Assembly: GCA_031374105.1 (NCBI GenBank)
Contig: JANMNP010000073.1
Location: 671 to 64,670 of the forward strand
DNA from: Novosphingobium sp.
GTDB lineage: Bacteria > Pseudomonadota > Alphaproteobacteria > Sphingomonadales > Sphingomonadaceae
DNA length: 64,000 bases
Direction of reading: 5' to 3'
The notes below the pieces were generated by a model that saw only the letters and a list, made by a program, of their open reading frames with translations, did no database searches and was not told the origin of the DNA. Below, in pieces: positions 16,514 through 52,355 of the stretch (positions within the stretch are counted from its first letter, which is position 1; each line of letters begins with the position of its first letter). Made by a program: the position numbers and the translations under genes.

Positions 16514-17094
16514 GGCCTCCGCGCGGATTGAGCGCGGGCGAAGCGGCGCTGTGGGCAAGGGTCGCGCAGACGGTTCGTCCGCTAAATCCTTCCCGCGCCG
16601 GGGAGGGGGACCATGCGAAGCATGGTGGTGGGGCGCGTGCGGTAGTCGTGACGGCGATAGAGCAGGATCACTCGCCTGTGCCCCTCCACCACCTGCGGTG
16701 GTCCCCCTCCCCCAAGGGGGAGGATCGGAAACCCCAGACTCTCGATCGCCACGGCCTCGACAACTCATGGGAGCGCAAACTTGCCAAGGCAGCGATTGCG
16801 CCCGATTTCACGCTCGATCTGCATGGGTATGGTCTGGATGCAGCGCATAGTCGGCTCGATCATGGGCTGTCGCTCGCGCTTGCGCAGGGCGCGCGGATGG
16901 TGCTGGTGATCACTGGCCGTCCTCGTCCGGTTGATCCGGCGGATCGCGGTTCGCGGCGCGGGGCGATCAGGGCCAAGCTGCTCGATTGGCTCGCAGCAGG
17001 TCCGCATGGCTCGCGGATCGCTGCGGTGCGCCAGGCGCATCCTCGACATGGCGGGGCGGGGGCGGTTTATGTGGTGCTGCGCAAGACGCGCTAG
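16510..17094 (+). CDS. Smr-domain protein carrying an in-frame 46-codon repeat-element insertion
   Basis: The C-terminal Smr domain is present ([20 protein letters not shown]...[12 protein letters not shown]...). A TTG start overlaps the mltA stop. Residues [13 protein letters not shown]...[15 protein letters not shown] are the translation of the repeat element at 16587-16724. Confidence 0.8.
16587..16724. mobile_element. miniature (cargo-less) copy of the GGGGAGGGGGACC / GGTCCCCCTCCCC inverted-arm element, 138 bp
   Basis: The outer ends are TCCTTCCC (16587-16594) and GGGGGAGGA (16716-16724). The left arm is GGGGAGGGGGACCATGCGAAGCATGGTGGTGGGG (16600-16633). The right arm is CCCCTCCACCACCTGCGGTGGTCCCCCTCCCC (16681-16712). 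The architecture matches the copies at 48497-48621 and 51295-51762. Confidence 0.8.
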
Positions 17095-28811: not shown

Positions 28812-28872
28812 TCAAAGCTGACACAGATGATGAGGCCGCACTTTCATGCCGCTAAAGTTCAGGAGATCGGCG

Positions 28873-29274
28873 ATGCAGGTCAACGCCCTTGATCATGTCA
28901 ACATTATCACTGACCAGCTGGATCAGACGGCCGATTTCTATGCCCGGCTGCTCGATCTTGAACGCCGCGACGGACCGCCGCCGCTGCCGCCGCATCAGGT
29001 GCAGTGGATGTATGACGCCAGCGGCCGGGCAATTCTCCATCTCAACTCAGTCGATTGTCCGCGCGCGTTCGATCGCTCTGTCGAGCCCGGCGCGCTGACC
29101 GGGGCTATCCATCATGTGGCGCTCAATTGCTCGGGCTTTGACGAGGTCACACGGCGGCTTGAGGCGCTTGGTGCAGAGTTCCGGTTCAATCTGATCGAAT
29201 CGATCGGCCTGCGGCAGATTTTCACACCCGATCCAAACAACGTGCTGCTGGAGCTCAACTTCTGGGGTGACTGA
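28873..29274 (+). CDS. VOC (glyoxalase/bleomycin-resistance/dioxygenase) family protein
   Basis: MQVNALDHVNIITDQLDQTADFYARLLDL...HHVALNC...DPNNVLLELNF is the VOC fold pattern. ATG 28873 has AGGAG 7 nt upstream, so I prefer it to the ORF-track start at 28846. Confidence 0.8.
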   Translation: MQVNALDHVNIITDQLDQTADFYARLLDLERRDGPPPLPPHQVQWMYDASGRAILHLNSVDCPRAFDRSVEPGALTGAIHHVALNCSGFDEVTRRLEALGAEFRFNLIESIGLRQIFTPDPNNVLLELNFWGD

Positions 29275-29292
29275 TACCAAGTCTCGGTGAGG

Positions 29293-29474
29293 TTGACTCA
29301 CTTCCCTCTTCTCCGTCGAGGAAGGGGGGCCTCTTCCCCGTCGGGGAAGGCGGGTGGACTCACTGCTCCCTTCCCCGTCAGGGAAGGGTTGGGGATGGGG
29401 GTACAAGGTCGAGGGCGTGCGCGTCGATGCGGCTGTAGAGCCCCCACCCCTAACCCCTCCCCGACGGGGAGGGG
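29293..29474. repeat. cluster of REP-like GC-hairpins
   Basis: Three hairpins are present: CTTCCCC-gtc-GGGGAAG (29333-29349), CCCTTCCC-cgtca-GGGAAGGG (29368-29388) and CCCCTCCCC-gac-GGGGAGGGG (29454-29474). Two diverged tandem units start G(T/G)GACTCACT (29293, 29354). The cluster fills the gap between convergent genes. Confidence 0.8.
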
Positions 29475-29511
29475 GATTCGATCGGTTCCAATAATTGATA
29501 TCTGGTATGAG

Positions 29512-48496: not shown

Positions 48497-48621
48497 TCCT
48501 CCCTGAGCTTTGCTCGGGGAGGGGGACCATGCGCAGCATGGTGGAGGGGTATTGGGCAACTGTGGAATACCCCTCCACCAACCTTCGGGCGGTCCCCCTC
48601 CCCAAACAGGTTTGGGGAGGA
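48497..48621. mobile_element. miniature (cargo-less) copy of the inverted-arm element, 125 bp
   Basis: The outer ends are TCCTCCC (48497-48503) and GGGGAGGA (48614-48621). The left arm is GGGGAGGGGGACCATGCGCAGCATGGTGGAGGGG and the right arm is CCCCTCCACCAACCTTCGGGCGGTCCCCCTCCCC. The element fills the whole gap between two convergent stop codons. Confidence 0.8.
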
Positions 48622-49205: not shown

Positions 49206-50383
49206 CGGCTTTCCTCCACAGCGCCACTGGCCAGCAGCGCATCAATTCTGGTCTCATCATAGCCAAGCCCCGCCAGCACGGCGCGGGCATCTGCGCCGGG
49301 CAGGGGCAGTCTGGTCGCTCCTCCGGGGCGTTTTCCGTCCATCTCCAGCGGGATGGTCGGCAGGCGTGTTTCGGTGCCATTGTCCAATGTCACTGGCTCC
49401 AGCCCCCCGGTGGCAAGGTGGGGATCTTCGAACAAATCCTCGGGCCGTCCGATCGGGGCAAACGGCATGCCGGTCCCGTCCAGTTTCGCGATCACCTCGG
49501 CGCGGGTCATCCCGGAGATCAGCGCGCGGATGGTGGGCAGGATCCGGTCCCGCGCCAGCACGCGCTGGTTGTTGGCGCGGATGGTTTCGTCTGCCCACAG
49601 GGCATCGAGCGCAAACATCGCGCAGAATTTCTCCCACAGCGCGTCGGTGACAACGCCGATGAACACCGGCTCGTCGCGGGTTTCAAACACGTCATAGATC
49701 GCCCATGCCGAAACCCGCGCGGGCATCGGCGCAGCGGGCTTCCCGGTCACCGCGAACTGCGCCATATGCTGGCCGACCAGATAGGCGGTGGTCTCAAACA
49801 GGCTGGCGACGATCTTCTGCCCAGCCCCTGTGCGGTGGCGCTCCTCCAGGGCGGCAAGAATCCCGATCACTCCAAACATTCCGCCAGCCACGTCAATCAC
49901 GCTTGCTCCCGCACGCAAAGGTTTGCCGGGCGGCCCGGTCATATAGGCCAGCCCGCCCATCATCTGCGCCACCTCGTCCAGCGCGGTGCGCTGTTCGTAT
50001 GGGCCAGGCAGAAAGCCCTTTTCGCTGGCATAGATCAGGCGTGGATTGGCGGCGGACAGCGCCTCATACCCCAGCCCCAGCCGATCGAGCGCGCCGGGGC
50101 GGAAATTCTCCACCACCACATCGGCCCGCGTGCAAAGCTCCTGCGCGATCGTCAGACCCGATGCGGATTTGAGGTTCAGACAGATCGATTGCTTGCCCCG
50201 GTTATACATCGGGAAATAGCCCGCGCCCGAACCCAGCAGCCGCCGGGTCTGATCGCCGCCGATCGGCTCAACCCGGATCACTTCGGCGCCAAGGCCTGTC
50301 AGAATATGACCCACTGTTGGCCCCATCACCATATGGGTAAACTCGATCACCTTGATCCCTGCAAGCGGTGTGGGACCAGTCAT
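49202..50383 (-). CDS. family III CoA-transferase (CaiB/BaiF)
   Basis: The motifs LAGIKVIEFTHMVMGPT, GAEVIRVEP..GD and VVVENFRPG are present, with the overall CaiB/BaiF pattern. Confidence 0.92.
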   Translation of the reverse strand: MTGPTPLAGIKVIEFTHMVMGPTVGHILTGLGAEVIRVEPIGGDQTRRLLGSGAGYFPMYNRGKQSICLNLKSASGLTIAQELCTRADVVVENFRPGALDRLGLGYEALSAANPRLIYASEKGFLPGPYEQRTALDEVAQMMGGLAYMTGPPGKPLRAGASVIDVAGGMFGVIGILAALEERHRTGAGQKIVASLFETTAYLVGQHMAQFAVTGKPAAPMPARVSAWAIYDVFETRDEPVFIGVVTDALWEKFCAMFALDALWADETIRANNQRVLARDRILPTIRALISGMTRAEVIAKLDGTGMPFAPIGRPEDLFEDPHLATGGLEPVTLDNGTETRLPTIPLEMDGKRPGGATRLPLPGADARAVLAGLGYDETRIDALLASGAVEESR

Positions 50384-51291
50384 CGTGCCAGCCTTTCGTG
50401 ATAGTCCAGCATCGGCCCGGCATCGGGGGTGAAGCCATACAGCGGCTCACCCGGCAGAGCCGCTTCCAGGATTTTGCGCACTTCCAGCAGCCGGTCCAGA
50501 TCAATCCCGGTTTCAAGCCCCATGGCATTGAGCATCAGCACCAGATCCTCGGTCACCAGATTGCCCGAAGCGCCCGGCGCATAGGGGCACCCGCCCAATC
50601 CGCCGAGCGAGGCATCAAGCGTGGTGATCCCCTCATTCAGCCCCGCCAGTGCATTAGCAAGGCCCAGGCCACGGGTGTTGTGGAGGTGCAGCGTGGTAAG
50701 CTTGTCTCCCACCGCGCCGCGCACCTTGCGGATCAGCCGTTTGACCTGCGCGGGATCGGCATAGCCGGTGGTGTCTGACAGGCTGAATTCCTGCGCCCCA
50801 GCCTCGGCAGCAGCAGCGGCAAGGCGCACCACTTGTTCCTCGCTTACTGCGCCCTCAATAGTGCAGCCAAAGGCGGTCGATAGCCCCACCGCGAAATGGA
50901 CCCCTGCGGCTGCTGCGATCTGCGCCACCGCCGCGATCTCGGCCAGCATCGCGGGATGGTCCATCCGGACATTGCGCAGCGAGTGGGTTTCGCTCATCGA
51001 AAAGGGAATGCTCATTCCGTGAACTCCTGCCTTCACCGCCCGCGCCGCGCCTTTGGCATTGGGAACCAGCGCCACGACGTTAAGTCCGGGAATCTCCCGC
51101 GCAAAGGCGACCAGTTCGGGCGTGTCGGCCATCTGCGGCAACAGGCTGGCCGGCACGAAGCTGCCCACCTCAATCTCCGGCACGCCCGCCGCAGCCTCTG
51201 CCGCGATCCACGCTTTCTTGGCCTCCAGCGGCATCACCCGGCTGATCGATTGCAACCCGTCACGCGGGCCGACTTCGGAAATGAGGATCAT
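50380..51291 (-). CDS. hydroxymethylglutaryl-CoA lyase-like (DRE-TIM metallolyase)
   Basis: The motifs EVGPRDGLQ, LHLHNTRGLGLANALAG and GGLGGCPYAPGASGN are HMGL-like signatures. The start ATG overlaps the stop of the upstream chimeric ORF (ATGA). Confidence 0.92.
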   Translation of the reverse strand: MILISEVGPRDGLQSISRVMPLEAKKAWIAAEAAAGVPEIEVGSFVPASLLPQMADTPELVAFAREIPGLNVVALVPNAKGAARAVKAGVHGMSIPFSMSETHSLRNVRMDHPAMLAEIAAVAQIAAAAGVHFAVGLSTAFGCTIEGAVSEEQVVRLAAAAAEAGAQEFSLSDTTGYADPAQVKRLIRKVRGAVGDKLTTLHLHNTRGLGLANALAGLNEGITTLDASLGGLGGCPYAPGASGNLVTEDLVLMLNAMGLETGIDLDRLLEVRKILEAALPGEPLYGFTPDAGPMLDYHERLAR

Positions 51292-51674
51292 AGTTCCTCT
51301 CCAATCACGGATTGGGGAGGGGGACCGTCCGAAGGACGGTGGTGGGGTATGCGGCTGCTCGCCGCAGCAACGATCCGCTCCACTACACTTTCCATATTCC
51401 TCATCACGTCAGTCGCCCCAATCCGCAAAGTCGCGACACCAGCCTTGGCCATGAACGCATCGCGTGCCAGATCGTGCGCGGGATTATCACCCATATCATG
51501 CGCAATTCCATCAACCTCAATGCAAAGTCTGGCGGCTGCGCAGTAGAAGTCGAGCACGAATCGGTCTGCCGGATGCTGCCGACGGAATTTCAGTCCGCCC
51601 GGCCGTTTTCGCAGTTCGGTCCATAGCATCGCCTCGGGCATCGACATTGATCGGCGGAGTGACCGGGCGCGCAT
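51288..51674 (-). CDS. DUF559 (Vsr/restriction-endonuclease-like fold) protein, internal ATG at 51674
   Basis: 128 aa. MPEAMLWTELRKRPGGLKFRRQHPADRFVLDFYCAAARLCIEVDGIAHD...D..RDAFMAKAGVATLRI matches the DUF559 pattern as I remember it. The C-terminal PHHRPSDGPPPQSVIGEEL is a translation of the element arm. Confidence 0.8.
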   Translation of the reverse strand: MRARSLRRSMSMPEAMLWTELRKRPGGLKFRRQHPADRFVLDFYCAAARLCIEVDGIAHDMGDNPAHDLARDAFMAKAGVATLRIGATDVMRNMESVVERIVAAASSRIPHHRPSDGPPPQSVIGEEL

Positions 51675-52355
51675 TACGGAAGAGTTGGTGCGGGGGGGGA
51701 GGCGGGATACCCCTCCACCGCTCTTCGAGCGGTCCCCCTCCCCAGCCTGCGGCTGGGGAGGATTGAGATATACCCATGGTCGCAGCTGCCTGTCTGCTGC
51801 GGTCCATACGGCGATGGCTTGGCCGGATTTGAGGGTCAGGTCGATCACATCCAGCCCTTCGAGCAGCATGGCTTTCGCCTCTGCGTCCAGGGTAAAGTGA
51901 TAGGCTTCAGCACCGGCGCGCACCTCTTGCGCGGCAAGATCGACGGTGACGATCTGCCACTGCATCGCTGCAATCGCAGCGCGCGGCAGTTCAACAGGCA
52001 ACAACCCGTTGCGAATGCAATTGGCGCGAAAGATTGGGGCGAAGCTCTCCGCGACGATGCAGGTGATGCCATATTCCCTGAGCGCCCAGACCGCGTGTTC
52101 ACGGCTCGATCCGCAGCCGAAATTTGCCCCGCCCAGCAACAGGCTGGCACCCGCGGCATCGCGCTGGTTGAGCGCAAAGGCGGGGTCGGCGATCCGCTGA
52201 TCGGCATTGCTGTAGCGCCATGGAGCGAACAGACCGTCCGCCAGCCCAGTCCTCCCGGTGGAGCGCATTTCGCGGCTGGGGATGATCGTGTCGGTATCGA
52301 TGTTGTCGAGCAACAGCGGCACCGCGACTGAGGTGAGGGTGGTGAAGGGGGTCAT
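51288..52355 (-). CDS. LeuD-like aconitase-family small subunit (homology 51765-52355) whose frame runs on without a stop through the inserted element to 51288
   Basis: The first 197 aa carry the LeuD pattern (DNIDTDTIIP, GANFGCGSSREHAVWAL, GITCIVAESFAPIF..N). After ...RPWVYL the frame continues into the arm translation (NPPQPQAGEGDRSKSGGG) and the DUF559 ORF, giving 355 codons in total. Confidence 0.8.
   Translation of the reverse strand: MTPFTTLTSVAVPLLLDNIDTDTIIPSREMRSTGRTGLADGLFAPWRYSNADQRIADPAFALNQRDAAGASLLLGGANFGCGSSREHAVWALREYGITCIVAESFAPIFRANCIRNGLLPVELPRAAIAAMQWQIVTVDLAAQEVRAGAEAYHFTLDAEAKAMLLEGLDVIDLTLKSGQAIAVWTAADRQLRPWVYLNPPQPQAGEGDRSKSGGGVSRLPPRTNSSVMRARSLRRSMSMPEAMLWTELRKRPGGLKFRRQHPADRFVLDFYCAAARLCIEVDGIAHDMGDNPAHDLARDAFMAKAGVATLRIGATDVMRNMESVVERIVAAASSRIPHHRPSDGPPPQSVIGEEL
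51295..51762. mobile_element. full-length inverted-arm element carrying a DUF559/Vsr-like endonuclease ORF (~468 bp)
   Basis: The outer ends are TCCTCTCC (51295-51302) and GGGGAGGA (51755-51762). One arm is GGGGAGGGGGACCGTCCGAAGGACGGTGGTGGGG (51314-51347). The other arm is CCCCTCCACCGCTCTTCGAGCGGTCCCCCTCCCC (51710-51743). The DUF559-like ORF lies between the arms. Confidence 0.7.

Follow-up and report, generated by a model that had tools for sequence, protein, structure and literature searches.

How does the gene of a putative nuclease come to lie in frame behind a leuD-like gene that has lost its stop codon? The question is raised by one locus in a 64,000-nucleotide stretch of a Novosphingobium sp. 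assembly (GCA_031374105.1, contig JANMNP010000073.1; the whole stretch is called the window hereafter), where a 468-bp unit with inverted arms stands at the junction between the leuD-like gene and an HMG-CoA-lyase-like gene and carries an open reading frame (ORF) of the DUF559 family. The unit is a lineage-specific insertion and a member of a family of nested palindromes spread across Sphingomonadales. Across this order the arms and the gene belong together, whole units have been gained at new loci, and DUF559 is their sole cargo. With slightly more confidence than doubt, we take the family for a selfish element, comparable to REPIN/RAYT systems or to homing genes, which possesses its own nuclease and is tolerated inside operons.

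The two arms of the unit, of 61 nt each, are 77% complementary, the repeat finder detected a further small palindrome inside each of them, and folding as single-stranded DNA gave two hairpins per arm (z = -3.8 to -5.1). In the 355-aa ORF that runs through the locus, Pfam recognized Aconitase_C (aa 1-125, E 1.8e-27) followed by DUF559 (aa 228-330, E 9.8e-26). The unit of about 468 bp with a DUF559 ORF between inverted arms, as proposed earlier by a reading of the letters without database searches (the sequence-only reading), is thus borne out. We also counted the conserved box of the arms, the 13-mer GGTCCCCCTCCCC (complement GGGGAGGGGGACC), in the window and in shuffled sequences. Its six exact occurrences in the window make up three inverted pairs (16600/16700, 48516/48591 and 51314/51731), and with up to two mismatches there were 7 matches where 2.2 were expected, a number reached by no shuffle. 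Two of the pairs belong to the cargo-less copies of the arms that had been noticed at 16587-16724 and 48497-48621 (copies A and B, Table 1). Both copies are real, as witnessed by their box pairs and by their folding into two outer hairpins and a long central stem (z down to -7.5); the three copies of the window have only the boxes in common. Rfam gave no match at gathering thresholds anywhere in the window, and the element itself drew only chance-level matches (E >1).

That the unit is inserted, and not an old part of the operon, can be read from the orthologous junctions. Among the best 120 matches to the LeuD part of the window ORF, most proteins are 201 aa long, and those read at an empty junction end RPWVYLEKxx*. 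The closest of them (P0121, 88% identity) is encoded on a contig, L081, which is syntenic with the window at ~90% DNA identity over 6.6 kb. On this contig leuD ends GAGAAACACGCATGA, its stop codon overlaps the ATG of the lyase gene as ATGA, and the element is absent from the junction. The homology between the window and L081 breaks at 51766 and restarts at 51289, and this gap, facing an empty junction, identifies the element as the derived state. The insertion replaced ~11-20 nt, namely the last four codons of leuD, its stop codon and the old start context of the lyase gene, and the lyase N-terminus reads MILISEV in the window versus MNRILISEV at the empty site (window 51280-51295, L081:3590-3620). 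The sequence-only reading had LeuD homology ending at RPWVYL (51765), at the element border and without a stop, and it had described a discrete element inserted on the leuD stop codon. The orthologue ends and the empty L081 junction agree with the border, the lost stop and the inserted element; the host sequence replaced exceeds the stop codon. The terminus of the element, GGAGAGGA, is unusual and resembles the original ribosome-binding site of the host, TGGAGAAA, which hints at joining through GGAG microhomology.

More distant LeuD orthologues (78-82% identity) have other occupants at the identical junction: a solo outer hairpin in one case, giving LeuD the tail EPPQPSIGEDL, and a solo arm in another, with a tail of 20 arm-encoded residues. 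At every occupied junction of this distant group the leuD frame crosses the insert without a stop and closes at the lyase start or beside it. As the nearest relative is empty and distant ones are occupied, the junction was hit more than once, or alleles were exchanged. Arm-encoded peptides also occur in public protein entries, as tails of LeuD (P0122-P0127) and as N-terminal extensions of DUF559 proteins (P0003, P0048 and P0094, for example LGEGDHAEHGGG); these are either annotation artefacts or a real outcome of stop-free arms.

The chimera of 355 codons announced by the sequence-only reading does exist as an ORF, but LeuD and DUF559 are in one frame only because a homopolymer, G8 (C8 on the coding strand), has this length. 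Were it shorter by a single C, a TAA overlapping the DUF559 ATG (TAATG) would close LeuD after 226 aa, which would be an ordinary coupled arrangement, and a homopolymer sequencing error or slippage at this run may be the source of the fusion. The native leuD stop is gone whatever the length of the run. In the present reading, the 5′ arm is translated as a LeuD extension, NPPQPQAGEGDRSKSGGG, and the 3′ arm encodes the tail of DUF559, IPHHRPSDGPPPQSVIGEEL. The neighbouring genes, according to Pfam, encode an aconitase large subunit and an HMGL-like lyase.

Table 1. Features of the element, its neighbours and its gene-less relatives in the window (positions of the whole stretch).
Feature	Position	Strand	Size	Description
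Whole element	51295..51762		468 bp	Reads TCCTCCCC...GGAGAGGA on the gene strand (minus); delimited by the inverted arms, the L081 homology gap and the family architecture
5′ arm (gene-proximal)	51702..51762	-		Outer hairpin 51737-51761; box GGGGAGGGGGACC = complement of 51731-51743; inner hairpin ACC-GCTC-GAA-GAGC-GGT; box GGTGGAGGGG = complement of 51710-51719
3′ arm	51295..51355	-		CCCCACCACC = complement of 51338-51347; inner hairpin; GGTCCCCCTCCCC = complement of 51314-51326; outer hairpin 51296-51320; terminus GGAGAGGA = complement of 51295-51302
DUF559 ORF	51288..51674	-	128 codons	YcjD/Vsr-fold nuclease (predicted); stop TGA overlaps the lyase ATG (ATGA)
LeuD-like small subunit	51765..52355	-	197 aa homologous to orthologues	Homology ends RPWVYL; last four native codons and stop gone
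Read-through ORF	51288..52355	-	355 codons	LeuD, arm-encoded linker, DUF559; hinges on homopolymer length
G8 homopolymer (C8 on coding strand)	51692..51699			Between the 5′ arm and the DUF559 ATG
HMG-CoA-lyase-like gene	50380..51291	-		Start context GGAGAGGA-ACT-ATG from the element
Arm-only copy B	48497..48621			Two arms and a 20-nt spacer
Arm-only copy A	16587..16724			Two arms and a 47-nt spacer

The association of arms and gene extends far beyond this genome. In a set of 80 DUF559 loci, drawn from many Sphingomonadales genera with one genome scanned per species, the 13-mer was found in exact or near-exact form, usually with zero mismatches, upstream of the gene in 59 loci, downstream in 60 and on both sides in 52. 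The G-box stands 50-170 nt upstream of DUF559 and the C-box at its 3′ end. The common layout is (A)TCCTCCCC-loop-GGGGAGGGGGACC-hairpin-GGTGGAGGGG, gene, CCCCTCCACC-hairpin-GGTCCCCCTCCCC-loop-GGGGAGGA(T). Full members are bordered by ATCCTCCCC on the 5′ side and GGGGAGGAT on the 3′ side, and short members consist of two arms around a spacer of 14-140 nt. Homologues of the 128-aa ORF align at 55-65% identity over 98-99% of its length, including the arm-encoded tail; the pattern PLHHP..GPPP..GEE is kept in them, and R..P.H....GPPP....GE is invariant or nearly so. Across the loci the median identity of the DUF559 proteins is only 55%. Boxes almost free of mismatches beside proteins of about 55% identity must be far more constrained than the gene they enclose.

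One host site recurs. In 11 loci from at least 7 genera (L012, L018, L020, L021, L022, L026, L027, L033, L034, L046 and L060), the element stands directly upstream of an orthologous biotin-carboxylase gene (~630 aa, MFASLLIANRGEIA...), five times in one orientation and six in the other, the orientation being constant within genera. DUF559 identity within this site (59.6%) is barely above that between sites (56%); for the host gene, these 11 loci give 68% identity. We had considered that the DUF559 genes of this site were orthologous, but with such figures vertical inheritance is inseparable from replacement. The pattern is compatible with an old residence in which the cargo was replaced through the arms, or with repeated insertion.

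A variant layout was noticed in Sphingorhabdus/Parasphingorhabdus (L026:9785-10410, L033:9791-10415 and L048:1618-2270), where DUF559 is directly preceded by a unit whose spacer, ~99 nt long, is conserved, so that the gene stands between two C-type arms in direct orientation. Two element-bearing contigs and one protein (L010, L029 and P0032) are labelled Janthinobacterium, Bacillota and Arthrobacter; these labels most likely reflect mis-binned or contaminated assemblies, not a wider host range.

The family seems to be built to fit inside operons. The DUF559 ORF runs through the entire 3′ arm in 47 of 59 elements and stops 4-10 nt past GGGGAGGA. When hairpins depart from the length of 11 nt, the frame is kept in 17 of 22 3′ arms versus 3 of 20 5′ arms (Fisher p = 6e-5). 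In the window neither arm contains a stop codon in any frame that the host genes and the nuclease gene read through it; host ORFs consequently run on into the arms, and the loss of the leuD stop is explained in this way. Of the ends of DUF559 elements, 17.8% have the start codon of an ORF of at least 100 aa 2-7 nt outside them (p = 2e-6), as do 12.8% of the ends of arm-only copies (p = 3e-3), against 5.5% of random positions. Our initial count of such starts (33 of 59 right ends) was too high, owing to spurious ORFs in G+C-rich DNA, and the excess became about threefold once the random-position control was added. The provision of a ribosome-binding context for the next gene, which the sequence-only reading had seen at the lyase, is thus a family trait. 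At the lyase itself GGAGAGGA does precede the ATG, with the ATGA overlap, but the gap is 3 nt (ATG at 51291-51289) and not the 5 nt given earlier. GGAGAGGA may provide the lyase gene with its Shine-Dalgarno sequence. A GGAGG lies within the outer box, which is held paired in the outer hairpin; a ribosome terminating at the end of the element would open this hairpin and free the Shine-Dalgarno sequence, and the resulting translational coupling to the lyase would replace the ATGA coupling lost on insertion. We infer this coupling from the arrangement of the sequence.

The hairpins of the arms vary in sequence and keep their pairing. The inner hairpins of the G-arm, with 61 distinct sequences, are 88% Watson-Crick paired, and those of the C-arm, with 53, are 92% paired, against ~30% in both cases after shuffling; the outer loops are 81-84% paired. 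The main loops are GAA and GCA in the G-arm, TTC and TGC in the C-arm. Loops of the GCGAAGC type form very stable DNA mini-hairpins. Since the two arms of one element differ in hairpin sequence, each local hairpin must be under its own selection. The top mismatch is G.T in the G-arm and, in mirror image, A.C in the C-arm, a symmetry that points to DNA, as a cruciform or as single strands of either polarity, and not to one RNA. The structure of a single transcript was considered as the selected form and is disfavoured, since the G.T mismatches lie on the G-rich strand of both arms, mirrored. Boxes and hairpin pairing are thus under much stronger constraint than the protein sequence.

What the enclosed gene may do can be approached through its fold. 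To our knowledge DUF559, E. coli YcjD included, is a very large family without established function. The ORF of the window covers positions 5-106 of the 109 of the PF04480 profile (E 9.8e-26), and it scores 69 bits with NCBIfam PRK09767, below the equivalog cut-off of 218, which makes it a relative of YcjD rather than the orthologue of this E. coli protein. It matches in sequence PDB 3HRL, a Neisseria DUF559 protein. The AlphaFold model has a predicted local distance difference test score (pLDDT) of 79, against about 45-50 in the tail encoded by the arm, for which disorder is predicted. With this model Foldseek ranked 3HRL first (E 1e-6); the homing endonuclease I-Bth0305I came second with its catalytic domain (E 4e-4; template modelling score 0.80, normalised to the target), followed by PvuRts1I and Vsr; TnsA is a remote fold relative only. 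D42, E53, D55 and H59 are invariant in the family alignment, and all the family-invariant residues are present in the window ORF. According to the model the protein has the Vsr/I-Bth0305I fold, and it is probably a nicking or cutting enzyme. A survey of the PD-(D/E)XK superfamily groups DUF559 with Vsr (PMC3424549). Furthermore, a Caulobacter DUF559 protein damages DNA in vivo and, in cells that lack a cytosine methylase, elicits the SOS response (PMC12907096), which makes nuclease activity in vivo plausible for the family. The PADLOC defence models gave merely weak partial matches to the shared nuclease fold, and a plasmid collection searched with the DUF559 protein returned distant relatives only (at most 55% identity).

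Two censuses describe how the arms are distributed. In the DUF559 loci and the window taken together (1.3 Mb), the distance from a G-box to the next C-box is bimodal: 22 pairs are short (72-152 nt) and 54 are of DUF559 size (395-550 nt). The second census used metagenome contigs chosen by one arm sequence only (120 loci, 0.78 Mb); in it the arm-only pairs number 38 (69-215 nt) and the larger ones 7 (408-454 nt), all seven of which enclose DUF559, no other cargo being seen. A further 102 arm sites are unpaired, and 44 of these lie close to the end of a contig. Direct signs of movement come from a metagenome-assembled genome (MAG) in which two contigs (L004:16320-16460 and L024:3310-3450) carry arm-only copies that are alike exactly from ATTCCTCCCC to GGGGAGGAAT, with unrelated flanks. 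Homology bounded by the outer repeats at unrelated loci indicates that units move as wholes. The spacers of these two copies match at 27 of 29 positions; the differences lie in the inner hairpins, one of which shows a compensated C-G to G-C swap, and in one outer loop. Hairpin modules therefore turn over faster than the spacer and yet stay paired, which suggests that they are exchanged through the invariant boxes, or repaired inside the hairpin.

The sequence-only reading had seen in the arm-only copies the miniature derivatives of an autonomous element, and this part of it is not supported. Comparison of 19 arm-only spacers with 54 DUF559 interiors gave nothing beyond chance-level matches of 13-14 nt, so that the arm-only copies are not simple internal-deletion derivatives. 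No flanking direct repeat of 3 nt or more, as expected of a target-site duplication, was found at the copies compared, and at the leuD junction the insertion took the place of host bases. A transposon with miniature inverted-repeat transposable elements (MITEs) is accordingly not supported by these copies. At the site of copy B, L081 has a solo outer hairpin, TCCTCCCC-GAGCAATGCTC-AGGGAGGA, whose loop is that of the right outer hairpin in the window. This fits a deletion between two CCTCCCC direct repeats as well as an insertion that duplicated them, the two being indistinguishable.

Outside the order we looked at 12 DUF559 loci from plasmid and chromid records, a small and non-random sample. 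G/C-rich inverted repeats stand on both sides of the gene in Sinorhizobium, three Deinococcus, Picosynechococcus, Pseudanabaena, Azospirillum lipoferum and Neisseria. The Deinococcus arms measure 56 nt at 95-98% in two cases and 24 nt in the third; the Neisseria case is weaker, with 29-nt arms that are 79% complementary and lie about 130-290 nt off the matched region. In E. coli, Azospirillum brasilense and Photobacterium such repeats were found on one side only, and at the DUF559 locus of Synechocystis B12 no flanking repeats were found. Many of these repeats, each specific to its lineage, hold CCTCCCC-loop-GGGGAGG hairpins. The E. coli ycjD gene (L090:480-1140) ends inside a palindromic repeat, CACCCTCACCCCAACCCTCTCCCTGAAAGGGCGAGGGGGCCG, which encodes SPSPQPSP*. 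Over 5,419 E. coli genomes the median count of this repeat is 18 places, which fits the published copy number of BoxC (PMC2267715), and it probably belongs to the BoxC family. The ycjD locus varies within E. coli, some phylogroups having ycjD there and others eefRABCD (PMC12817139). Small and non-random as it is, the sample suggests that the pairing of repeats with DUF559 is general beyond Sphingomonadales. The window holds a further, different palindromic cluster, G/C-rich and located at 29275-29480, just after the stop of a plus-strand ORF (28846..29274); it includes CCTTCCCCGTCAGGGAAGGGTTGGGGATGGGGG and the partner CCCCCACCCCTAACCCCTCCCCGACGGGGAGGGGG and resembles the BoxC-like repeats found beside the DUF559 genes of E. 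coli, Sinorhizobium and Azospirillum. No DUF559 gene is present there.

How could such an element spread? In the reading that we favour, the DUF559 protein would recognize the conserved boxes, or the hairpins or cruciform extruded from them, and its cut would start a recombination-dependent copying of the unit, that is, a homing-like gene conversion or insertion and not a cut-and-paste movement with target duplication. The identical boxes would serve both as recognition and as homology sites, so that loops, hairpins, spacer or gene might be swapped as modules.

Several points weigh against this reading. The action of the nuclease on the arms is an inference, no defined cleavage site is visible in the copies compared, and we know of no DUF559 protein that is a transposase or a proven homing enzyme. 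The missing target-site duplications and the spacers unrelated to the gene count here too. The two DUF559 copies of one MAG are only 54% identical; they are not recent duplicates, and signs of recent bursts of the gene-carrying form are lacking. The solo hairpin of L081 may equally be a deletion relic or a target. A function at the level of the host could account for boxes so strictly conserved in every copy, and the recurrence of the carboxylase site in many genera could mean long residence instead of mobility. Moreover, the family is described from 20-kb stretches and metagenome contigs, not from whole genomes. As to homing in the strict sense, no site in these data was seen with bare arms in one genome and with the gene between the arms in a closely related one; empty and filled leuD junctions both exist.

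The loci of other phyla allow a wider proposal, which we put forward tentatively: a superfamily of G/C-rich nested palindromes spread over several phyla might have its own dedicated enzymes in the DUF559/YcjD proteins, the whole being a second and independently evolved system of the REPIN/RAYT type, based on a Vsr-fold nickase that recognizes extruded hairpins. The superfamily would comprise the Sphingomonadales elements, the BoxC-like repeats of E. coli, the CCCTCTCCCC..GGGGAGAGGG repeats of Sinorhizobium and Azospirillum, and those of Deinococcus and the cyanobacteria. In such a system the nickase would be responsible for unit copying as well as for hairpin modules being exchanged or repaired, from which compensated stem swaps and fixed boxes would result.

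A different account separates the two partners. The repeat family would spread by other means, and DUF559 would be a free-standing homing gene aimed at the centre of the repeat, the arm-only copies being its empty targets and the DUF559 copies its invaded ones. Arm-only pairs do exceed DUF559 pairs by about 5:1 in the arm-selected contigs, their spacers have nothing in common with the gene, the 59.6% against 56% DUF559 identity suggests that cargo is swapped between arms, and the second-closest structure is that of a homing endonuclease. We nevertheless find this account rather unlikely, because the gene is not cleanly inserted. It goes on coding, under frame constraint, across the whole 3′ arm, and in many loci the inner box GGTGGAGGGG stands, as judged by eye, ~2-20 nt before the apparent start, where it may be a ribosome-binding site. 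Furthermore, other phyla repeat the association with different sequences, so that many independent invasions would be required.

More doubtful is the idea of a host gene with cis-regulatory arms, in which a repair or defence nuclease, toxic in excess, would be silenced and insulated by DNA or RNA structures of the arms through sequestration of its Shine-Dalgarno sequence and pairing of the ends, with arm-only copies and solo hairpins as relics. It draws on the GGAGG within GGTGGAGGGG, which is complementary to CCCCTCCACC on the 3′ side in a pairing extended by 2-4 covarying bases, and on the Shine-Dalgarno-like GGAGG hidden in the outer hairpins. The old paralogues, the sites common to several genera and the damage caused by the unchecked Caulobacter protein (PMC12907096) would suit it as well. 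However, it leaves unexplained the de novo arrival at the leuD/lyase junction, the copying of arm-only units between unrelated loci, and the perfect boxes and paired hairpins of gene-less relics, and the mirror-image mismatches argue against selection on a single transcript.

A programmed inversion switch, in which the segment would flip and turn the nuclease or the downstream gene on and off, is very improbable. DUF559 is enriched among predicted inversion targets (odds ratio 14; PMC9881135), and the carboxylase-adjacent element does occur in both orientations (5 versus 6). That published enrichment follows from flanking inverted repeats alone, though, and the orientation is fixed within genera; moreover, the arms are not equivalent, as frame constraint is seen in the 3′ arm only, and no recombinase ORF lies nearby in the window. 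Chance similarity or an assembly artefact can be set aside almost entirely, since the same 13-mers and architecture occur in more than 100 independent assemblies and the window counts exceed those of the shuffles, the homopolymer-dependent fusion being the only part that could be an artefact.

A nuclease gene as the cargo of a structured inverted-repeat element with gene-less relatives is thus supported across the order. The sequence-only reading knew of no formal description of such an element. We found none either in the literature on DUF559, COG2852/PF04480, ycjD, the boxes, Sphingomonadaceae MITEs, and Vsr with palindromic repeats, a search of incomplete coverage in which no link between DUF559 and a repeat element appeared; the nearest approach was a table line in PMC9881135 that lists DUF559 among inversion targets. 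DUF559 genes lying inside a conserved structured repeat offer this family a concrete candidate substrate and a testable function, which may explain what its nucleases are for, and they offer a candidate enzyme for orphan repeats such as BoxC. In the favoured reading the element is selfish DNA compatible with operons, in that its arms are free of stops in the frames read through them, its ORF ends at its own Shine-Dalgarno box and downstream translation may be restored, and it could serve as a model for the persistence of selfish DNA in compact operons. It also affects annotation, through chimeric ORFs, arm-encoded tails on host proteins, spurious N-terminal extensions of DUF559 proteins and possible "invertible" flags from inverted-repeat screens.

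Among the known systems, by analogy a REPIN/RAYT arrangement or a homing-type nuclease fits better than a transposon with its MITEs. As in REPIN-RAYT systems, a hairpin repeat is dispersed in intergenic regions as inverted doublets, a small enzyme gene lies between inverted repeats, gene-less doublets are in the majority, the enzyme copies are old and diverged instead of forming bursts, and the structure is DNA-symmetric. Here, however, the enzyme is a PD-(D/E)XK nuclease of the Vsr fold, with DUF559 as the sole domain found, and not an HUH tyrosine (Y1) transposase; the GTAG tag is absent, each arm bears two hairpins along with three invariant G/C boxes, the gene codes through one arm, and the outer ends serve as ribosome-binding sites. 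With transposons and MITEs the family has in common the terminal inverted repeats bounding a unit, long and short forms, insertion polymorphism and copies at unrelated loci; it differs in having no target-site duplication, short forms which are not internal deletions, nothing but the boxes in common between copies, and no known transposase.

Homing genes of the EDxHD type, such as I-Bth0305I, have the same nuclease fold according to the model, and as with them the gene is embedded in a conserved sequence that might be target and homology at once, and the cargo is apparently exchanged between sites. The element lies outside any intron or intein, and its presumed target is a dispersed repeat and not one host gene. 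The BoxC repeats of E. coli and other mosaic palindromic repeats (BIME, RIME) are likewise G/C-rich, hairpin-forming, modular and intergenic, but the boxes of BoxC are unlike those of Sphingomonadales; we know of no partner enzyme, spread mechanism or reported ycjD link for BoxC. Finally, the Rickettsia palindromic elements (RPEs) can lie within reading frames and be translated as an extra peptide, with the LeuD tails and the read-through ORF as the counterparts here; RPEs carry no gene, and the Sphingomonadales elements insert at gene ends and junctions and not inside domains.

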